A stretch of DNA of 63,450 nt, counting the filler, from Basidioascus undulatus (taxonomy: Eukaryota): NCBI GenBank assembly GCA_000826855.1. It is 6 parts of 6 records of this genome, joined end to end, with 100 filler letters (N's around TTAATTAATTAA, not from the genome) between each part and the next. Parts side by side here need not be neighbours in the genome. Positions count along the whole stretch, not along the records: positions 7,191 to 14,279 come from JTLS01001618.1; 5 more parts are not named here. One strand, 5' to 3'. A program made the translations under genes and the position numbers. The notes under the pieces are model-generated. The model was not told where the DNA came from. It saw only the letters and a program-made list of their open reading frames with translations, and did no database searches. Shown here piece after piece: positions 2,092-25,775 of the stretch (position 1 is its first letter; each line of letters opens with the position of its first letter).

Positions 2092-4335
2092 ATGACGGTC
2101 GCCGAGATTCACGACGATTTCGATGCGATCCTTGTGCTGGACTTTGGGTCCCAGGCGAGTCGCAGCGTCGTCAACAGCGTCTTCTCAGGCGTACTCGGCA
2201 GCGGCAACTGACCTGCTCTACCGGAACAGTACTCGCACTTGATCACTCGCAGGTGCCGCGAGATCAACACCTACTGTGAGATGCTTCCGTGCACGCAGAA
2301 GATCTCGGAACTGAAGTGGAAGCCCAAGGGTAAGCTCCTGCCGGCCTTCAAGCGTTCCCCCGCAAGCTGACCCCCGCTCGCAGGTATCATCCTCTCCGGC
2401 TCGCCCTACTCTACCTACGACAAGGACGCCCCTCGCGTTGACCCAAATGTCTTCACCGCGGGCGTCCCTGTTCTTGGAATCTGCTACGGTCTCCAGGTAG
2501 GCGCCATTGACAGCTAGTGTGAGGCTTCGGCTCGCTCACCGGTGTGCGCGAGCTTTACAGGAGATCGCCCACACCTTCGGCGGCAAGGTCGAGGCTTGCG
2601 ACCACCGCGAGTACGGCTTTGCGGAGGTCACCACTCACAAGCATCCTGAGCACCCCTTCGCCGACCGTCTGTTCGAGGGCATCGAGGGCCCCACGCAGGT
2701 GAGCGAGCATTCCACCATGCTGGACGATCATTGGGAGGACGGGGCGGAGCAGGCGGGCGCTGGGCGTTACTCTTATGCGGGATATTGACAAGCCCATTCA
2801 ACGCAGGTCTGGATGTCTCACGGCGACGCCGTCTCCGCTCCTCCTCCCGACTTCCTCACCATCGCCTCCACCCCTACTGCCCCCTACGCCGCCATTGTCC
2901 ACCCCACCAAGCCTATCTACGGTGTCCAGTTCCACGCCGAGGTCACGCACTCTACGCGTGGCAAGGAGGTCATCGCGCGCTTCGTTCGCGACATCTGCGG
3001 GTGCAGGGGTGACTGGAGCATGGTGCGTGGTGCTCCTGTTGTCGGGATGGGACAGCGCTCACACATCCTTTGGGACCGCAGGAGTCGTTCATCGACAAGG
3101 AGATCAACCGCATTCGGGAGATTTGCGGTGAGAAGGGGCGGGTTATTGGCGCTGTCAGCGGTGGTGTTGACAGCTCGGTCGCGGCCAAGCTGATGCACGA
3201 GGCGATCGGCGACCGGTGCGTTTGCTCTGCACTTGACAAGCTGCGGGATCACATCTGACTTTTAATTTCGCACAGTTTCCACGCCATCATGGTCGACAAC
3301 GGTGTCCTCCGGCTGAACGAGGCGGCGCAGGTGCACAAGATGCTGAACGAGGACCTGGGCGTGAACCTGACCGTCGTCGACGCGTCTGAGCTCTTCCTCT
3401 CGCGCCTCGCGGGCGTCGATGACCCCGAACGCAAGCGCAAGATCATCGGCAACACGTTCATCGAGGTGTTTGAGGCCGAGGCCGCCAAGCTCGAGGCCGC
3501 CGCGGAGAAGGAGGAGGCCGAGACCGGCGGCGAGAGCAAGGGCAAGATCGAGTGGCTCCTACAGGGCACGCTCTACCCCGACGTCATCGAGAGCATCAGC
3601 TTTAAGGGCCCCAGCGCGACGATCAAGACCCACCACAACGTCGGTGGCCTCCTCGCGGACATGAAGCTCAAGCTCATCGAGCCGCTGCGTGAGCTATTCA
3701 AGGGTGCGTTTCCCCGTCGATTGGGATGGTGCCTCCCAGGCTGACTTCGCTCTTCGGTACAGACGAGGTCCGCGCGCTCGGCCGCCTGCTCAAGATCCCC
3801 GAGCACCTCGTCGGGCGCCACCCCTTCCCCGGCCCCGGCCTCGCGATCCGCATCCTCGGCCCCGTCTCCGCGCCGCAGGTGCACATCGTCCAGCAGGCGG
3901 ACGCTATCTACATCGAGGAGATCCGCAAGGCGGGCCTGTACGACCAGATCAGCCAGGCGTACGCGGCCCTCCTCCCCGTCCGCGCCGTTGGCGTCCAGGG
4001 CGACAAGCGCACGTACGATCAGATCATCTCCCTCCGCGCCGTCACCACCGACGACTTCATGACCGCCGACTGTGCGTTTCTCTACCCTATCCGAGACCGA
4101 GTTGAGGTCGACATGTGCTGATGCCCGATTTTGATTGTGGCAGGGTTCGAGTTCCCCCCCGCTGTTATGCGCCGGATCTCCTCCAGGATCACGAACGAGG
4201 TCCGCGGTGTCAACCGGGTGCTCTATGAGGCAGGTCGCAGCGGCTTTTCGTTCAGCACCTTCGAACGAAACACTGACCGTCCTTCCTCCCTTGCAGGTTA
4301 CCTCCAAGCCCCCTGCCACCATCGAGATGGAGTGA
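2092..4335 (+). CDS. GUA1: GMP synthase (glutamine-hydrolysing), multi-exon
   Basis: Spliced translation shows [99 protein letters not shown] and [12 protein letters not shown]. Confidence 0.97.
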
Positions 4336-5542
4336 TTCTTTATACCCGTTTCTGCATTTTTCGTCATTGTATTCTTGGGATGTAGCGCATAGACTGTAGA
4401 ACTCTCGGCACTTCGCATGGCATGCTGTGTGCGACTTGAACAGGCCCAGCTGGTACCCACCGTGCCCTCACACAAGCTCGCGCTGAAGTCTTGCTCATGG
4501 GACGGATTCCGCGATGGGTGACACATGTCACCCAGCGGCTGTCCCACTATATGCATCGGAAGGAACACTCGAGCCTTGTGCGCCTTCGACTCTCCCATCA
4601 GAGGCACGCGGTGGCTGGATATAAAAATACTCGATAAGCGCAGCAGCCATGGTTGGTGCGGCCCATGCTTCCATACTGCTGCGAAAATCGGTCGGCGAGA
4701 AAGGTGTCTCCGTCATCGACCTCGGTGTAGCTCTAGGACTGTAGGTGGTAAATACATGCAGAGCCAGTAGTACTTTTTATGGTGACCTCTAGGCCGACAT
4801 CCGCACATGCAGTCGCTGCCAACATGTGCATTGTGGTGCCAACGTCCACAGTATATGAAAGCGGCCCTACACCTCCTGACAAGGCAATATTTTAGGAAGC
4901 TACTGGATGAAAAGTAGCTCTACATTTAGGTTTCCTTCGAAGAAAAGACGCAGATGCAGTCGTGACCACGCTCGGAAGTCACTGATGTATTATTTCGTAC
5001 AAAGTGACGGACCCCAGGATCAACATCCCCGACAAGAGGTGCTCTCCGTCCACGCTGCTGACTCCAGTTTCTGGTCCTTCAGGACTGTGGAGCCCAAGTG
5101 GAGCCAGATCATGCCCCGCTGTGCCTCGGCGGCCAGACAGGGAGACTCCGCAGTGAAAACAAAGGAAGTCGCCATGCATGCCACTGCCCGCGTGGTTCAT
5201 GCACTTATGGCCGGTGTACTCAATACTTTGCGTCTTGGTATCGTTGTCAGCTTGCGTCGGCAGTGACCGGATGGGCGACATTTAGGGGGGACTCGATTGT
5301 TATGTTACAGAACCTGTCTCCGAGCCTGCTTTGCAGTGCCAAAAATGTATGCATCTGTCTCACCGATCTCCTTGAGCAGGTTTGGGATATTTGCGGGTTC
5401 TTCGGTCTTCTTGAGTGATGTAGCGGGGTACAGCGACTCCTGGGACTCCACAAGTTATAAGAGTGGCGGGTTTCCGGGCTGGTCCTCTCTCACCCGGTCA
5501 ACCAAATCCCTTCCCCCCTCTCCCCATTTTCTCCACGACAGG

Positions 5543-6216
5543 ATGCGTACTTCCAAGCTCGTCGCTGCTGTTGCTTTCACTCTCTCCGCTGCAACGCTCG
5601 TTGTGGCTCAACCAGTGCCGGACAAGCGTGAACCTTTCGACAAGTCCGGCAACCTCAAGGTAAGCCTGTTATCAAGCAAAGCCTGCTTGAACGCATTATC
5701 TTGCTTATGCATCTGACCACCAGATTGAGGTTCACCTCATTGACCTGACGCTTCCCGACCCGGCCACCGGTGGCGGAAACAGCTATTTGTCAGGCGCGAC
5801 GAAGGTCGCTTACCCGGACGGTAGCACCAGCTGTACGCTTTGGGTCCACATGCTTGGTGGCCTACTGAACAACAGGCCCCTTCCCTCCGAACCTATCTCA
5901 GTGCCAACTGCCGGAAGGCTGAGGACGCCTACCCGAATGGGTATCCCAAATACTGCGATGTTCCCCAGTAGGGCAGCCTCAACTACGGCATCAGGGTCCA
6001 AATTTAGCATGCACGCACCCACTTCCAGGTACTTGCCTAAACCGCTGCTGCAGCTCACACATATGAGCAGTTCCTGTCAGTTCGACCATCTGGGCGGCTA
6101 TGTGAACTTCAACTTCTGCGACAAGCACCGCGTAAGTGCAGACCCGCTACCTTCGAGCTATCCGATTCACACATAGTGACATTCTGACGGTGGCGCAGTG
6201 CTACGACACCAATTAA
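5543..6216 (+). CDS. Small secreted Cys-containing protein; middle exons uncertain, possibly disrupted
   Basis: Signal peptide MRTSKLVAAVAFTLSAATLVVA followed by a KR site; clean intron 5660-5723; terminal exons read FDHLGGYVNFNFCDKHR|CYDTN* (TAA 6214-6216). Confidence 0.55.
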
Positions 6217-6297
6217 TGGACAGCCGGAGTGCGGCCACGAAGGGGGCGGCCTTGAGGCCTTCTCCTCTGACCTCTCCGCGGTGTGTTACGTTGATGT

Positions 6298-7090
6298 CTA
6301 GGTCGCCTGTCGAGCGTGCTCCTTTATTGTTTCACTCCCTTTATTTTCATTCTTAGTCAAGCGCTCCACACAAGCCAATCGAAATGAGAACCGTTTCCTT
6401 ATACAGCCAGTTGATTCAATGTCGTATGCCTGATGCACATCGAACAGTATTGTTCTGGAGTGCACCTTCAGCCGGAAAATAACCACAGAGCCCCATAATT
6501 TCATCAGAGATATACATTACTTCCATGGCCACTGAAGAAGAAGGAGAATGCCACCGGCGAAGAGTAGTATTGTGAGCCAAACGTAAAGAAAGCAGAAGCA
6601 GCGTGCTCCCTACAAAGCCCATTGGTACCTACAAAGACGTTCACACTATGCTCAACACATAGTTGTCTAGGCCCGTACATGTCCCCCACCCTCCTTATGT
6701 GCAGTCGCGAAGCACACTCTCATCGCACACATCGATCCCGGCGCAGATTCGATCTACAGAGCGCTCTGCTGACCCTGAATAGGAAGCCATAGTGTACGTT
6801 CTCAATTACATTTCCTCCATTTATATAGTCGACCGTACCTATGCTGCCACAAAAGAAAAGAATGTCAGTGTATGAGCGGCAGTGGGGCGCGGCAATGGCA
6901 TAGCAACAGACGCACTTTCGAGGGCTGCGATCGAGATCCCACATTCAGTGAGCTGTCCCTCGCCCTTGCAATAGGAGTGGGACGTACAGAAGAAAAACAT
7001 CGTGAGGCCCGAAGGCAGGAAGAGCACGCCGATTGCCGCAGACGGGCACGGACGGCGTGTTCTCGCTGCCGTAGGTGCGCGTGCAGATGA
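6298..7090 (-). CDS. Possible 3' part of a micro-exon-rich gene of unknown function (truncated by the contig end)
   Basis: Hydrophobic stretch IGVLFLPSGLTMFFF followed by GTACGT/GTGCGT donors, CTGAC branch sites and YAG acceptors around short exons. The product was not recognised. Confidence 0.25.
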
Positions 7091-7190
7091 NNNNNNNNNN
7101 NNNNNNNNNNNNNNNNNNNNNNNNNNNNNNNNNNTTAATTAATTAANNNNNNNNNNNNNNNNNNNNNNNNNNNNNNNNNNNNNNNNNNNN
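7091..7190. other. Artificial contig linker (N-TTAATTAATTAA-N)
   Basis: 100-nt N-run with a six-frame stop cassette. Confidence 0.99.
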
Positions 7191-8255
7191 CTACGCATCA
7201 GAATGCAGAGGAAGAGCCTTCATTGGGAGGAAAGGATGGCGAGGGGAAGACGGTGAGACAGCTACGATGCGCCGGCGGGCTTTCCGCTCTGCCTGCTTGC
7301 AGGCGCAGACATGCCCAAGCTTAGGCGCGCCTCCCAACTCCCTGCGCCAGACTACCTACAGTCGCGTTCGGTGTGTCAATTCTGATAAAGCCTACGACTT
7401 TCCGTAGTTCTGTTTTCCTACCCACCACTGAAAGTTTCTAAACCTAACGAAAATTACCATCACAAACACCCACAAACACAGCCCTTGCAGCTTGCACCCG
7501 GATGCCTGGCGCTAGGTAGACCGCAGCGTCTGCACGTCAGTGAGGTCCTTCGCCAAAAGGCTGTGTCGCGTAGATAATCAGACTCCGTAAAATACTAGCC
7601 TAGCCTGTAAGAGCATCTCCGTGAATCAAGCACACAGGGTCCAGCCGCCATGGAGTGTCTCCGCTACGTGCCTTTCTAAGCTACTCAGCTGGTGAACGGT
7701 CAATCTGCTTTCGACAGGCCAGGTTCGGGTACAGCGTTCTTTTGCATCAGCTATGCTGTTGCAAGTTTTAAGTATTGGTTGCCATTGGCAGCATGTTGGC
7801 TGACAGTCCTCCCCTATGCTGCTCTGCAGCAGCTTCAGGTTCCACCTCGACCCACCCTGCCCGCCACATTCTACAGGAATGGACAGGTGTTTGGCGGGCC
7901 CGAAATGCACACAAAATTACCGCCTTTCCTTTGAAACGCTATCTTGAAAAATATGTCTTTACGGGCATGGAAGTCTGTTGTTCAGCAGTGCTCGGTTCGG
8001 GTGTTGTGTGATGCTGATGTGCCGCATTGCGAGCTGTTACGCTCACCAGCCTTTCATCAATCCACTCTGAATTTTTAGATTACCCCGCCAATTCCTTACG
8101 TAAGGGTGTGGATCTCACTTGCAGATGTTACAGACACTCCGCCTTTCCAGCGACTTACATCCTCGGCTGCTGGCCATTCGACGCTGTCGCATCGCCGCAA
8201 GCTGCCCCCATGTCCCCCTGCGTTCCAGAGCATCAATGTGCATATGAAGGTAAAG

Positions 8256-8266
8256 AAAAAGAAAAA
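8256..8266 (-). terminator. RNA polymerase III oligo-T terminator of the permuted tRNA gene
   Basis: The minus strand reads TTTTTCTTTTT starting 3 nt after G37 of the tRNA 5' half. Confidence 0.8.
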
Positions 8267-8268
8267 TA

Positions 8269-8344
8269 CCGAAGTCTAGCGCCTTGCCATTAGGCCACGC
8301 GGCCGAATCGACCACGACGCGACTCGAACGCGCAATCTCTAGAA
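8269..8344 (-). tRNA. Circularly permuted tRNA-Arg(UCG): 3' half 8344-8309, ATTC spacer 8308-8305, 5' half 8304-8269
   Basis: Minus strand: T TCTAG AGATT GCGCG TTCGAGT CGCGT CGTGGTC G | ATTC | GGCCGCG TG GCCT AATGGCA AGGC G CTAGA CT TCG G. The reassembled 72-nt cloverleaf pairs fully: acceptor 7/7 (two G-U), D stem 4/4, anticodon stem 5/5, T stem 5/5 (one G-U). Confidence 0.9.
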
Positions 8345-8353
8345 ATCAGTTTG

Positions 8354-8386
8354 CCGCTCAGGCAAGTGAACAGTGACCGTTTAAAT
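8354..8386 (-). promoter_or_regulatory. Putative Pol III promoter elements in the permuted tRNA leader: A-box-like TGCCTGAGCGG (8364-8354) and AT-rich ATTTAAA (8386-8380)
   Basis: One mismatch to the A-box consensus TRGYNNARNGG, starting about 35 nt upstream of the T-loop B-box core GTTCGAGTC (8329-8321). Confidence 0.45.
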
Positions 8387-8999
8387 CTTCAGTATCTTTG
8401 TGTGGCGTCAATGGTTGAGCCGGTTATCATGCACTCCCTGGCGGCTTCAAAGGCAGAATTCCGTGGTTGGAACGGTCTGGATATCGGAGGGCCCTGCGAG
8501 AGATAGATGGTTCCAGGAGGGTGAGGGTGCAATGCCAGGACCTGCGGGGAGGAGAGGAAAGCGACCTGGCCGGTTGGGCGGGTTTGCAGGGTAGTGTGTG
8601 GGAAGAACAGGCAGGTGGTAGTGTGTAGCTGATTTGAGAGTTTTAAGGTAAGCGTGCTCGCCTGCTTCTCCACGTGCAGGGGCCTTCCCCCAGCTATGCA
8701 GTGAGTATCTGCTTGTGGCGGCATGGATCACGCCTTCAGAAAGCAAATGAATGGAAGAATGACCCGAAAATGTACTCAAATTCTATTATGGGTCCTTTAT
8801 TCAAGGCTATACGAAGCAAAGTCGAGTACGCGTCTTAGGGCAGTCGGGAGGGTCGTTTTGCACACTCCGAGGCCTGCGTTTCGCACACACACCAGATACC
8901 ATGGCATTCTCTCGGGATTGGGTTTCTTTTATTTGGCCATACAACAGGACTCGGCTAAATGAACCGCATCGTCGGCAGCTCATTGAAAAATAGGGAACT

Positions 9000-9558
9000 A
9001 TGGGCAGGATGGGCGACGACGCTCAACGTTCGACGTTCCATCGCCCCGTTCGCTATCGGTACATCGACTTCGAGCTCAGAATTTGCTACCCCACCAACCT
9101 CCCCGCCGAGAGCTGCGGGATATCTGGCCTTCCAGTCCTCAAGTACGGTCGCCACGTCCCTCCCGAGATGCTGCAGCCCGAGCCGTACGATCCTTTCCCA
9201 GCCGACGTTTGGCAGCGACAGCTTCGGGTGACGTTCTTCGTCCGTTCAACGAGAATTTCGTTCTCATCATAGCGTTACTGACATTTTTTCAAACTTTACG
9301 CTCCAGAATGTCTTCTCCGTCGCTCCCGGGATTGAGAAGGCCGTCCACGCGATGTTCGCCGCAGACCTGGCGGCGCGGACAACTGCGCTGGGGCGTTGAC
9401 GCTCCTGCGGGACGGCCGATTATCCGTTAGGGATGAAGACCTCGACTCCTTCTTAAACCAGGGGAACTACGACAGCGAGCCACCCCTTGAGGACGAGTTC
9501 GGAGGATACGGTACGGACCCGAAAGCGAGGTTTCCGGAGCTGAGGAGGGCCTTCTAAG
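9000..9558 (+). pseudogene. Remnant of a fungal protein kinase-like gene (resembles the basidiomycete AgaK1 type)
   Basis: RSTFHRPVRYRYIDFEL and PPEMLQPEPYDPFPADVWQ resemble kinase subdomains VII-IX. No N-lobe was found and the frame breaks downstream. Confidence 0.55.
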
Positions 9559-9893
9559 CTAGTTGTATATGTCTTACTTAAAGATATAGCCCCAATTACA
9601 AAGCAATGTCTCGTCGTCTTCAGGCCTCTTCAAGCGTCGTGCTGCATTTAAGGAGACGCCGGCGCAGTCCCGCTAGTGCCCGCTGCCGTCCCGCCCGTTA
9701 CCTTCTTCAGCCGGCACTCGGCCGTACAGATGAATTTATGAGTCTACGTACAACCTGATTGAATGTTTGCATAGTAGAATTAAACTATGATCCGGAGAAG
9801 TTCCGCCGTCGCTGGTGTAGGCCGAACCTGTACGATGTGACTTCCTTTCCTCCCGCCGTGTCCAAGCTGAATCACCTTTGTAGCTCACTGGCG

Positions 9894-10661
9894 ATGCAAC
9901 CCCTCCAAAAGAGCCCCAAGAATATAAACGAAGAAACAATCGGAATTCTCGAAGAGGCTCTCGCCGACGCAGAAGCAGCTCTCTTGCTGCTCGAGTCTGC
10001 CGCCGAGCCAACGCCGCCACAGCCATCACATCGACCCCCAGTCGCTCCGACACGCGGAGGATCGACATCGGCAACCTCGCGCACACCGAATTCTGTCCGA
10101 TTTGAGCCTTTTGCAACACTAGAACCTGAACATCCCACCGCTTCGCCTCAACAGCCATGGCGTTCGCAGGTGAGCTGGGCGCGCGAGCAAGCGCGGCTGC
10201 GCGAGTGGGCGGACTACCTCTGGACGCGCCGGATCTTCCGGCCGCTGCGCACTGAGCATTCCGCTTCACCATCACCACCTATGGGCGAAAGGACTGCAAT
10301 TCCGAATCCGCCTCCCCTTACTTTGGATCGGCAGAAGTTGGTGCAGAGGCACCGCGAGAAGGTCGGGCGGATGCAGTGGGAGGCGCTGCAGGGCGTACAG
10401 AAGAAGCCGGTGGATCAGCAGGGAGCGGACCAGAGGGAAGAGGTCTGGGCGATGAAGCTGAAGGCAAGGGCGAGGACGGCGGCGCAGATGCAGGGTGGTG
10501 TGGGAGGTCGAGTGGTAAAGGGCAAGGATAACCGCAGCGGAAGGCAGGAGGGCGGCGCACTCGGTAAGGAAGTCAAGAACGTGCGGGAGAACAGGAAGTT
10601 GGGTATGGAGAGAGTGGCCCGTTGGAGGGATTCCCAACAAGAGACATCTAGAATTGGATAA
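9894..10661 (+). CDS. Hypothetical basic, low-complexity protein
   Basis: Uninterrupted ORF from ATG 9894; no recognisable domain. Confidence 0.35.
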   Translation: MQPLQKSPKNINEETIGILEEALADAEAALLLLESAAEPTPPQPSHRPPVAPTRGGSTSATSRTPNSVRFEPFATLEPEHPTASPQQPWRSQVSWAREQARLREWADYLWTRRIFRPLRTEHSASPSPPMGERTAIPNPPPLTLDRQKLVQRHREKVGRMQWEALQGVQKKPVDQQGADQREEVWAMKLKARARTAAQMQGGVGGRVVKGKDNRSGRQEGGALGKEVKNVRENRKLGMERVARWRDSQQETSRIG

Positions 10662-10821
10662 ATAGGACGGTCTGGTCCATGCGCAGACGCATCACAGAAT
10701 GCTTCGCGTGCAACGGGGCTGAAACAGCCGGTCTGAAAACATACACACACACGGCACACGATCCACAAGCTCGTTATAACCTTCCCTCATCTCTTTCGTT
10801 TCTTTCCTCTCTGTCGATCGT

Positions 10822-13123
10822 TTGATCTCCGCTCTTCGCACACTCACTGCTGTGCTTCCCTCTCCTTTTCTCCTCTTCGGGCGTCTGGCCCTCGCCGCTT
10901 CCACGCAAAAGTCCTCCGCCGACGCACTCGACTCTTCGCTCGAGACCATAGTCGATTTCAGTGGCCACAGGTTTGTCAGTCACGGCCTTGTCAGGGCGGG
11001 CCGCTTCCCCGCCGACAAGCTCGACCAGTTCGGGGACACGCTGGGTGGTCTGGGCAGTGCAGCTGCTCTGGAGCGTGGCAGCGGGAAGCGTAAGAAGGAC
11101 TGCAGCTACGAGGGCGTGATTATTGCCAACCGGATCGAGGTGCGCTTCTTTCCTGCGATGGCAGACTGTGCCAAGACTGAATTCGTTGCTGTAGGCAAAC
11201 AGGACACAATACCCAAGGTGCACTTAAGGAATTTGTTATGCCTGCGAAGATCTTTCGAACTCATTTCGATCCGAAAAGGCACAATCAACTAACCTCCGCG
11301 AAACCACCGCTTCCATCTTTTCTTTGTCGCCCTACTACAGCGCTTCGAAGCAGAGCCTTGACGACGGCGCCGAGTCGCTCGAACTCAAGTATATCGACTC
11401 AAGCTAGTACAAGGAGCGTGGCGGCAAGGAGGCTACCGGTCTCGATCCGCTCTTTGTGCGGAAGGGCGACAGTCAGTGGCCGGATCTGCCCGTCAGCCAC
11501 TAGGACAAGATCTCTGTCGACTCCGAGGGTCTCGTTATAGAGGATGGGACGTACTGGATAAGTGGAGGGATCGTTGTATTTTTAGTGAGATTCGGTAATG
11601 ATCTTACCCCACGTGCTCTTTACAGATTGCGGAATAGGTGAGAGCTGCTTTGAGCATCGAGCAAAATTTTCTTGACTGCATGCTGACAGACTGTCCTTGA
11701 TTTCGCAGCATGGGCCGTTCATCTACCATGTTGCGGAGGACGGCACCATTTTATCCGCCGTAGCCCGTGCGCCTTCTCCGCCTCATCACATTCATAACCA
11801 CCTTCCACATTACAGACGTGACCGTTGTACCAGGCCAAAAGACCTTCTCCCCTTACCTCAAGCTTAACTTCACGTCCGAGACGGATGGCAATTCCGGTCG
11901 GACGGGCAATCAGGGATTGGAGGGTCTCACTGCGTCGTGCGTCTGAATGTGCTGTAGACGCGCAACATGACTGTGCCGGCCGACGAGGAGAGGGATGTCA
12001 CGAACGGAAGTCACGACGGCAAGGCGCTTTTGCGATCCTGCAGAGTGGTGCTGTCCAGGAGTCAGCCGAAGCGGGGAATAGGGCAACGCCAACACGCGCC
12101 TCCTGCGCTACGACATCTCGAACGCGAAGGACGTCAAGTTGACCGGGCACTGGATCGTGCAGGTGCGTTACGTCTTCAAAGGCTGCTGGAAACATTGGAC
12201 TGCCATGCTGACAGCGGGTTTCTTCTTTTCGCAGCTGCCCGTTAGCAAGGACAAACCCCGGGCGACAAGCGACAACCACACTTTCTTGACTCTGAGCCGC
12301 GATGGAAAACATGAACGCTTTATCCCGCGCCTTTGCCCTGCTTAAATCCTCCCGATTAACCGCTATTCCTCTCTATGATATTTTCTCCGGGCGACAGGTA
12401 TAATTGTTTTGCTTTTAAAAAAGCGTTTTGATCGGTCGTTTAACGCGTGGCCCTTCTCTATCGGCGCGCACAAGTCCGACAAGTAGGGAGCCGACCTTGT
12501 CGACATCTCCGCGGCAACCAGTACGTATCGAGATTTCCCTGACCTGATATTTCGCGGCTGTGAGCTGATCTGCAAATTTACAGACCTCATGCACACAAAG
12601 TACGACTCGGACTCCGCCGTCTCCCCCGAAGGCAAGCTCGCCGAGGATATCACAAGCCGTTCGTCGACTACCTGGACATCAAGCAGCTGAAGGGCTTTGG
12701 CATTCACAACGACGGCACGCTTGACGACGGGCTGATCTCCGCCAAGTGGGAGAGCCTGGTCCTCGCGCCTGCCCTGGACGAGAAGGTCCGTTGTTTGGCT
12801 TTCTGAAAATGTGACTTGCGAAGAGGTTAACAGTGCTCCTGCTGTACCGATTCATGCAGAGCACTAACGATTACATTTTCATCACGATCGCCGACAACGA
12901 CTACATCACTGTCGACGGGCACTCGCTTGGGGAGAGGTACAGCGACCCTTACGGCCGCAACGTCGATACTCAGGTGCGTTTTGTGTGGCTTACATTTGCC
13001 TGAACTACATGAGAGAATTCACTGAAAAACTATTTTTTGTATAAACTCTATTAGATCATGGCGTTCCGGCTGACGCTGCCGAACGTGGACGCGAAGAAGC
13101 TCAAGAAGTTCTTGGACATTTGA
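10822..13123 (+). pseudogene. Pseudogene of the 'esterase-like activity of phytase' family (secreted)
   Basis: Motifs GLVRAGRFPADKLDQFGDTLGGLGSA, QPDRG (out of frame at ~11127), ISVDSEGLV..DGTYWIS (preceded by an in-frame TAG), NQGLEGLT (frameshifted), YIFITIADND and FRLTLP...LDI*. Confidence 0.8.
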
Positions 13124-13717: not shown

Positions 13718-14250
13718 TCACTCCGGCCTGTTGCCAGCGTAAGCGTCCCTCAGCAGCTTGAGCAGCCTCTCCTTCTCCAACGGCGCCGGATTGGGGTACG
13801 GCGACTTGACGGCGATGTCCGCAGCCTTCTCAATGTCGTCCTCCTTGAACCCGAGCTGCTTGAGCGAGTACGGCGCGCCAAGGCTCTTCGCGAGGTCGAA
13901 CAGGCCCTGCGCGGCGTTGTCGACGCCCATCGCGCGAGCGGCCCGCGCGATCGCCTCCTGCCCATGGGGCGCGTTGTACGCGACGGCGTGCGGGAGAATT
14001 ACGGTGTGCGTCTCGGCGTGCGGCATGTTGAACGTCCCGCCGAGCGTGTGGCAGAGTTTGTGATGCAGTGCCATGCCGACCGCTCCGAGGCAGGTCCCGC
14101 AGGCCCATGCGCCGAAGAGCGCGTCCGAGCGCGCGTCCGCCTCTTGCGGGTCCTTGACTATGAGGGGGGGAGCGCGCGCGATGGCGGAGATGCCCTGCTC
14201 GGCGAGGGAATTGATGATCGGGTTGGACTGGGTGGAGTAGAGGGGGACTG
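13718..14250 (-). CDS. Maleylacetate reductase (iron-containing alcohol dehydrogenase family), C-terminal exon; 5' part lost at the contig end
   Basis: LYSTQSNPIINSLAEQGISAI, ARSDALFGAWACGTCLGAVGMALHHKLCHTLGGTFNMPHAETHTVILPHAVAYNAP and PYPNP; preceded by an intron-like CAG acceptor. Confidence 0.9.
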
Positions 14251-14279
14251 GAGTGTGCGAGCGCGGTAAGCAGGAAGTC

Positions 14280-14379
14280 NNNNNNNNNNNNNNNNNNNNN
14301 NNNNNNNNNNNNNNNNNNNNNNNTTAATTAATTAANNNNNNNNNNNNNNNNNNNNNNNNNNNNNNNNNNNNNNNNNNNN
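14280..14379. other. Artificial contig linker
   Basis: N-run with TTAATTAATTAA. Confidence 0.99.
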
Positions 14380-25000: not shown

Positions 25001-25775
25001 ACATCTGTCGAACGGAAGGGATGCACTGTGAGTACCATATGTCATCGTTTGGTAGTGACTGAGACAAAGACAGCAATTTCACAAAAATATGCAGTGACTG
25101 CCACTGAGGACACCTGGAACCGCGGGAAGCGGAACCGAAGGAATGTACAGGGATATTTGCTAGACAGCTGTACAGACTTTATCGAGAAATAGACTGCGGC
25201 AGCGTGTCTACTTTCGATGTGCATGGTCAAACTGCCCAATGACAATAGCTGAAAAGGGGCGGCGACCGGGCGGACAGAACATGGACTCCGCCCCGGCCGA
25301 CCTCAGGACAAATTACCCAAGATAGTAGGCATCTCAAACCCATTATACTTTACATTGTCGTGCTTATATGGTCTGTAGGTCCCTCGTGAGAGTTTCCAGC
25401 CAAGCAGGGGCAACTTGACTCTCGATAGGTATTTATAGTTTCCCTAAGTTCTAACAACAACAGCTTGATGGCGCAGGGGAAGCGCGGTGGGCTCATAACC
25501 CACAGGTCTCTGGATCGAAACCAGATCAAGCTACTTTCTTTTTTTCCCTTTTGTTCGCAGTGCCCCGCAAACGGAAGCTCTCAGTTTCCGTCCCGCTAAG
25601 TATTAGAGAAGCAACCTGCTCTACCCCCTTCTTTCATACAATCAGCGGTTGAGGCCGACCCAACTTTCAGGGCGTAGCCGTGACAGGGAGGATACCTAGC
25701 CATCTCAGGGCTACTTATCTGGGACAGTTGAGTAGCAGAGTAAAAATATTGGGCCAAATTGGACCGACTGGAGTG

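Follow-up and report, generated by a model that had tools for sequence, protein, structure and literature searches.

The minus strand of the window, by which we mean the whole 63,450-nt stretch of Basidioascus undulatus DNA analysed here, carries a circularly permuted tRNA-Arg(TCG) of type II, in which the break falls at position 37/38 and the two halves are separated by a 4-nt intervening sequence. The features of the locus incline us, with modest confidence, to regard it as a functional tRNA-Arg(UCG) gene of a basidiomycete nuclear genome. We see evenly balanced chances that it represents the first working fungal case of a permuted tRNA gene and, within the literature found, the first in a non-photosynthetic eukaryote, matured by an endonuclease of the yeast type and a fungal ligase without a bulge-helix-bulge (BHB). 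The gene order itself belongs to a known kind, and what appears to be new is the occurrence of the permuted architecture in the fungal kingdom and without a BHB.

Direct reading of positions 8100-8500 showed that, on the minus strand from 8344 to 8256, the 3' half comes first and is followed by ATTC, the 5' half and TATTTTTCTTTTT. The 3' half (8309-8344, 36 nt) covers tRNA positions 38 to 73, from U38 to G73. It is made of T38, the 3' strand of the anticodon stem (TCTAG), the variable loop AGATT, the T arm GCGCG-TTCGAGT-CGCGT, which carries the B box, CGTGGTC and G73. The 5' half (8269-8304, also 36 nt) covers positions 1 to 37, from G1 to G37, and is made of the acceptor strand GGCCGCG, T8, G9, the D arm GCCT-AATGGCA-AGGC, which carries the A box, G26, the anticodon stem strand CTAGA and the loop sequence CTTCGG, which includes the anticodon UCG. 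The intervening sequence ATTC (8305-8308) lies between G73 and G1, and no CCA is encoded at the locus. The coordinates of the halves and the description of their sequence given in the first-pass annotation all agreed with this reading. Upstream of the 3' half lies a leader ending in ACTGAT, provisionally placed at 8345-8356 from the fold and from direct reading. Downstream of the 5' half, the trailer (8256-8268) consists of T, A, a T5 run (8266-8262), C and a second T5 run (8260-8256), and contains a candidate RNA polymerase III terminator. A TATA-like element, TTTAAA, is found on the same strand at 8379-8384 and is a candidate site for TFIIIB.

Rejoining of the two halves produced all 21 expected stem pairs, 18 of them Watson-Crick and three G-U. 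The acceptor stem is paired at 7/7 positions (five Watson-Crick and two G-U), the D stem at 4/4, the anticodon stem at 5/5 and the T stem at 5/5 (one G-U). The conserved T8, G18G19, U33, G37, TTCGA and G73 are all kept, and the anticodon loop reads CTTCGG plus T38, so that the intact cloverleaf with every stem paired, as claimed in the first-pass annotation, was recovered in full. A junction between two different tRNAs was rejected, as 12 of the 12 pairs that bring the two halves together are formed. Each half was then scored alone against RF00005, a check that had been proposed at the outset, with Infernal run in truncated mode. The 5' half matched model positions 1-36 (19.6 bits, E 0.013, 3' end cut off) and the 3' half matched positions 37-71 (15.7 bits, E 0.15, 5' end cut off), both scores lying below the gathering score of 29. 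These matches indicate that the halves abut exactly at the canonical intron site. In circular mode, ARAGORN called a tRNA-Arg(tcg) on two of four slices, including 8269-8344, and assigned a four-letter anticodon, tcgg, to the other two, each of which had one extra base.

The first-pass annotation had predicted that standard tRNA scanners would probably miss the gene, and this proved to be the case for both of the scanners used. Linear ARAGORN, whether introns were allowed or not, reported for the whole window only a tRNA-Met at 25462-25534 and nothing at the permuted locus. Rfam at gathering score likewise returned the tRNA-Met only and missed the locus. We also ran a circular sliding scan with ARAGORN over the whole window, in frames of 100 nt moved by steps of 4. 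Fifteen wrapped matches were obtained, of which 13 came from consecutive frames at the permuted locus (ten of them called as Arg(tcg)), while the remaining two were edge effects on the ordinary tRNA-Met. When the window was shuffled with preservation of dinucleotides, 17 of the 20 shuffles gave no wrapped match, the counts in the remaining three being 1, 1 and 2. The permuted locus is the sole such site in the 63-kb window.

Neither the 5' half nor the 3' half has a second copy anywhere in the 63 kb, the next-best matches found by blastn-short being 8-13 nt long; the absence of second halves noted earlier for the immediate surroundings therefore extends to the whole window. This result, together with the blank output of linear ARAGORN, led us to reject an ordinary colinear tRNA gene with an intron. 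Remnants of the outer halves were sought by alignment in the flanks. The score observed for the 5' half against the 300 nt upstream was reached by 220 of 500 shuffles, and that of the 3' half against the 300 nt downstream by 128 of 500, so that no remnant was detectable on either side. A SINE of tRNA origin is expected to keep the normal colinear order of the tRNA; this origin was rejected from the permuted order of the arms, and from the finding of no further copies in the window. An insert of mitochondrial DNA was rejected as well, the tRNA being GC-rich and having an Arg-type D arm, which we take to be the nuclear or cytosolic type.

The locus is crossed without any difference by contigs from two DNA runs, which belong to separate studies (2014 and 2025); record 1 of run X1 spans 7600-8487 and record 4 of run X2 spans 7600-9000. 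Each run comprises about 35 million letters and contains the region in full, with depth available as one mean figure per contig. Since either run may be the source of the window itself, at most one of them is independent. A separate contig of 461 nt in run X1, with a depth of 9.7, is common to the window over the 30 bases at 8458-8487 and then diverges from it in the direction of the permuted gene, although its first diverging letters keep an 11-nt core with the window. This contig may represent an allele or paralogue that has diverged from the stretch located about 115 nt upstream of the gene.

The nature of the host was examined from the surrounding genes. The GC content is even over the window, at 0.51-0.62, the lowest value (0.51) being found at 6-9 kb. 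The window contains 200 stop-to-stop open reading frames of at least 110 aa, of which 138 were run against Pfam and seven matched a family. The matches comprise the GATase and C-terminal domains of a GMP synthase (2.8-4.1 kb), the C-terminal domain of an Fe-alcohol dehydrogenase (13.7-14.3 kb), two occurrences of SKN1/KRE6 (34.5-37.3 kb, of which one falls short of the curated cut-off), SHMT (47.5-48.7 kb) and AIM3/BBC1 (49.6-50.2 kb). We take SKN1/KRE6 and AIM3/BBC1 to be fungal families. The SHMT match is spread over three stretches that lie apart in a single reading frame, from which we read a gene probably split by small introns. The GMP synthase exon at 3693-4118 (plus strand) matches Phaffia rhodozyma (81%), Botryobasidium, Rhodotorula, Tulasnella and Ustilago. 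For the exon at 13721-14323 (minus strand), the best named matches are basidiomycete maleylacetate reductases, at about 69-77% (Rhodotorula species 72-75%, Collybia nuda 69%), followed by bacterial proteins at about 63%. This maleylacetate reductase gene is unusually close to bacteria for a fungal gene and may derive from an old bacterial transfer. The exons lying about 4 kb to one side of the locus and about 5 kb to the other side thus have best named matches that all belong to the Basidiomycota. Together with the fungal Pfam families and with assemblies that amount to about 35 Mb, these matches answer the question of contig taxonomy raised in the first-pass annotation in favour of the fungal host that it had named. 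The data support a basidiomycete host and, as far as they go, exclude an algal origin. No Pfam family was found in the 17 open reading frames of at least 110 aa located around the locus, at 4880-12851, and this neighbourhood would be either gene-poor or lineage-specific. In the small sample of 438 Pfam-supported codons of the window, CGA accounts for 0 of 18 arginine codons; the demand for tRNA-Arg(UCG) may thus be low and the gene could be dispensable.

We next considered the signals for transcription. A T5 run starts 2 nt past G37 and is followed by a second one, whereas direct reading revealed no T4 run inside the permuted unit. Runs of five or more T number 71 on both strands of the window, which corresponds to a chance of about 0.003 that one starts in a given span of 6 nt. 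The TTTAAA element lies 35-40 nt upstream of the 3' half and could be set beside one ordinary gene only, the tRNA-Met, where the TATA-like TATTTATAG precedes the gene by 24-32 nt and a T7 run follows 3 nt past its end. That gene (25462-25534, plus strand) is colinear, scores 59.4 bits against RF00005 and has the T loop ATCGAAA, presumably of the eukaryotic initiator type. At the permuted locus, the B box is located upstream of the A box, which breaks the usual geometry of the TFIIIC-dependent internal promoter. According to work cited in PMC3978253, TATA boxes in the upstream region are important to the tRNA genes of some fungi, and in yeast they permit TFIIIC-independent transcription in vitro. 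The same layout, with an upstream TATA-like element and a downstream T-stretch, is described for the permuted genes of Cyanidioschyzon merolae (PMC3978253). Just upstream of the leader, at 8351-8365 on the minus strand, the hairpin TTGCC-TGAGC-GGCAA loosely resembles an A box or a D arm. It was the sole call of a scan for promoters and terminators of bacterial type, a scan without bearing on RNA polymerase III. We gave no weight to a relaxed A-box-like motif that lies 37 nt upstream of the B box, at 8365-8354, since its pattern was drawn up post hoc; this pattern has five matches in the window.

The ends that would have to be spliced were examined by folding of 8356-8262. The minimum free energy (MFE) structure has a value of -34.7 kcal/mol and a z score of -1.79, with 7 of 200 shuffles folding as well, so that the predicted fold as a whole is only mildly better than that of shuffled sequences. 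In this structure, the leader bases ACUGA (8350-8346) pair with U34-C35-G36-G37 and the first U of the trailer, forming a helix that prolongs the anticodon stem beyond a 2x2 loop of U(-1), U38, C32 and U33. The permuted cloverleaf has a predicted energy of -31.9 kcal/mol when it includes this leader helix and of -22.3 kcal/mol with the C32-G(-3) pair alone. In this alternative, G(-3), at 8347, pairs with C32 as an anticodon-intron pair. Both pairings of the leader ACTGAT put forward in the first-pass annotation, C32-G(-3) and ACTGA with TCGGT, are therefore possible, but the helix does not exceed chance: with 1141 of 2000 shuffled leaders, the final 12 bases gave a 5-bp helix of equal length with the loop and trailer. 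It thus provides no evidence of design. A strict BHB is absent, as C32-G(-3) alone can form among the four central pairs (32-35 with -3 to -6). We treated the BHB as characteristic of the permuted genes described so far, in which it is predicted, and not as a defining feature of the gene order. An excerpt of PMC4090602 states that, in eukaryotes, the splicing endonuclease takes its measure from the mature tRNA body and uses an anticodon-intron pair at the 3' site. Processing of the predicted transcript, in which this body is intact, would need the eukaryotic body-measuring mode.

These features suggest how the locus might be expressed. RNA polymerase III would start a few bases upstream of 8344, using the TATA-like box with or without binding of TFIIIC at the B box, and the transcript would consist of the leader, the 3' half, AUUC and the 5' half, stopping in the T5 run that follows G37. 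In the folded tRNA body, the acceptor stem would be closed by G73 plus AUUC and the anticodon loop would be open. The Sen endonuclease would measure from the intact body, use the C32-G(-3) pair and cut away leader and trailer, after which the fungal tRNA ligase would join G37 to U38 to yield a circle. RNase P and tRNase Z would then open this circle at AUUC, and CCA would be added. The reverse order would be equally possible in fungi, with processing of the ends coming first and giving two annealed pieces, spliced like a cut pre-tRNA. A circular intermediate would therefore not be obligatory.

Comparison with described permuted tRNA genes placed the locus close to those of algae. PMC3978253 tabulates 34 permuted genes from C. 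merolae, four prasinophytes, the nucleomorph of Bigelowiella natans and Thermofilum pendens. Their intervening sequences range from 1 to 74 bp, and most of the junctions in green algae are at 37/38 (Table 1 of that paper). The type II genes of C. merolae, Ostreococcus, Micromonas and the B. natans nucleomorph likewise have the 3' half first and the break at 37/38 (Soma 2007 and Maruyama 2010, as reported in PMC3978253), and the intervening sequence is as short in B. natans (5 bp; PMC3978253) as it is here (4 nt). Like the algal type II genes, the fungal locus encodes no CCA and has an intact eukaryotic consensus, and its T-stretch past the 5' half and candidate TATA-like box may correspond to the T-stretch and the AT-rich or TATA-like upstream element of those genes. 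It differs from them in its fungal host, in being known from DNA, and in having just C32-G(-3) or a 5-bp anticodon-leader helix in place of a strict BHB. The table of 34 genes has no entry for Arg(TCG), whereas Arg(CCT) of C. merolae and Arg(TCT) of O. tauri are listed (PMC3978253). The tRNA-iMet and tRNA-Tyr genes of T. pendens are also permuted, with intervening sequences of 1 and 7 bp (Chan, Cozen and Lowe 2011, as reported in PMC3978253). According to the same source, however, these archaeal genes are broken at 59/60 and encode CCA, in contrast to the break at 37/38 and the lack of CCA in the fungal locus.

Ordinary intron-containing tRNA genes of basidiomycetes provide the second term of comparison. 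Their discontinuity lies likewise at 37/38, and in both cases the Sen endonuclease and the tRNA ligase would recognise the mature body. In the permuted locus, by contrast, the order of the exons is reversed, the "intron" is open, its place being taken by leader and trailer, and 4 nt close the acceptor end. In Cryptococcus neoformans, 132 of 143 tRNA genes have canonical introns, according to an excerpt of PMC4090602. This abundance indicates that basidiomycetes can possess the starting material as well as a heavily used splicing pathway. No permuted tRNA gene of a fungus was found in the literature, as judged by titles and abstracts, where reports concern algae, a nucleomorph and Thermofilum, in line with the statement of the first-pass annotation that no fungal case was known. 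In excerpts, a 2026 review still restricts permuted tRNAs to algae and archaea, a 2025 preprint adds Auxenochlorella to the hosts, and the tRNAscan-SE 2.0 paper mentions permuted tRNAs for archaea only.

Function was inferred from the T5 run past G37, from the upstream TATA-like box, which is found as at the tRNA-Met, and from the intact halves. We further counted in favour of a working gene that the outer halves expected after a tandem duplication are absent from the window, the inner halves showing no defect, that the predicted energy of the cloverleaf with leader helix comes to -31.9 kcal/mol against -34.7 for the MFE structure, and that the junction position and the short spacer are within the range of described permuted genes. 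The inverted order of the boxes, the absence of a strict BHB, the lack of CGA codons and the scores of the halves below the gathering score were counted against it. Most of these latter points would also suit a young non-functional rearrangement, a possible but less probable origin, in which tandem duplication of an intron-containing tRNA-Arg(TCG) gene, or its excision as a small circle and re-insertion, put the break in the intron. The 3' half, the 4 nt and the 5' half would then be left over, and the copy would be perfect only for want of time to decay. The missing BHB, the leader pairing at chance level, the inverted internal promoter and the apparently low demand for CGA are consistent with such a relic, and the diverged X1 contig at 8458-8487 hints at duplication or allelic divergence nearby. 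However, several events or an unusual re-insertion of a circle would be needed, and yet the 72 nt contain not a single disabling change, nor do the outer halves leave any remnant in the flanking 300 nt or in the rest of the 63 kb. The position of the T5 run also argues against a relic, as this run, with its low probability of arising by chance, lies where a terminator is needed, a place that in an ordinary gene is the start of the intron. A T run at the intron start of an ordinary tRNA gene is expected to stop RNA polymerase III.

The locus might also specify a transcribed small RNA that has the shape of a tRNA but does not decode. Its acceptor end would be capped and its anticodon end open, and it would serve as a mimic or regulator much like the tRNA-like module of YrlA. 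We regard this as very unlikely. YrlA (RF02553), a bacterial Y RNA-like RNA, was the only relevant Rfam match to the linear sequence when 8150-8450 was searched at permissive thresholds, and its module is likewise laid out with the T arm first, then an acceptor-like stem and then the D arm; the terminator-like T run would also suit a small polymerase III transcript. The match reached 26.9 bits (E 0.0007), far under the gathering score of 69, so that membership of the family was rejected, and it is explained by the shared order of the arms. Unlike YrlA, the locus has a fungal host and a complete anticodon arm once the ends are joined, and a mimic would not need a full anticodon stem-loop with U33, UCG and G37. 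We know of no system of the Ro60/YrlA type in fungi. Least probable of all is an artefact, whether a misjoin in the assembly, a collapsed tandem array or a contaminating algal contig. Points in favour of such an origin are that at most one run is independent and that depth is one mean per contig. Against it, the gene and its unique flanks are covered, with zero differences, by contigs of both the 2014 and the 2025 study, and a collapsed array would not put a unique leader and trailer directly against the halves. A contaminant is opposed by the exons on either side that match Basidiomycota best, by the fungal Pfam families of the window and by its even GC content.

In the literature found, permuted tRNAs are discussed as oddities of algae and archaea, tied to splicing that recognises a BHB. 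If the permuted tRNA-Arg(UCG) gene works, the ordinary tRNA-splicing machinery of opisthokonts can rescue a gene written back to front, and a genetically more tractable setting would become available for circular or two-piece tRNA intermediates. It would also be a warning that inventories of fungal tRNAs made with standard scanners, both of which missed the locus here, can lack genes. Other permuted genes may then be hidden in basidiomycete genomes and explain some of the anticodons that scanners report as missing; missing tRNAs are reported, for instance, in an excerpt of a preprint on Trichosporonales (bioRxiv 10.1101/2023.05.09.539844). Even a dead relic would be a rare snapshot of how permuted genes may arise from an intron-rich set of tRNA genes.

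Relatives of the locus were searched for in other collections. In prokaryotic genome contigs, exact and degenerate patterns of the 5' half gave 0 matches each, as expected for a collection that is prokaryotic. A scan of metagenomes with a pattern consisting of a T-loop, 20-50 nt and an Arg-type D arm returned 26 loci, none of which resembles the permuted tRNA-Arg or could be assigned to a fungus. By eye and from linear ARAGORN counts, 20 of the 26 were ordinary tight tandems of complete tRNAs, and two (L019 and L021) were single tRNAs with a chance TTCGA upstream. In four further loci (L011:1501-1550, L016:626-674, L018:736-784 and L022:1501-1551), a 3' acceptor strand is followed by a short spacer and by a complementary 5' strand with an Arg-type D arm. 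These four look like permuted tRNA genes and are probably algal. The contig of L011 is 91 kb long and has a GC content of 0.70. Wrapped ARAGORN matches occurred at several places in L016 (61 scan frames) and L018 (34 scan frames), which may hold clusters of permuted genes.
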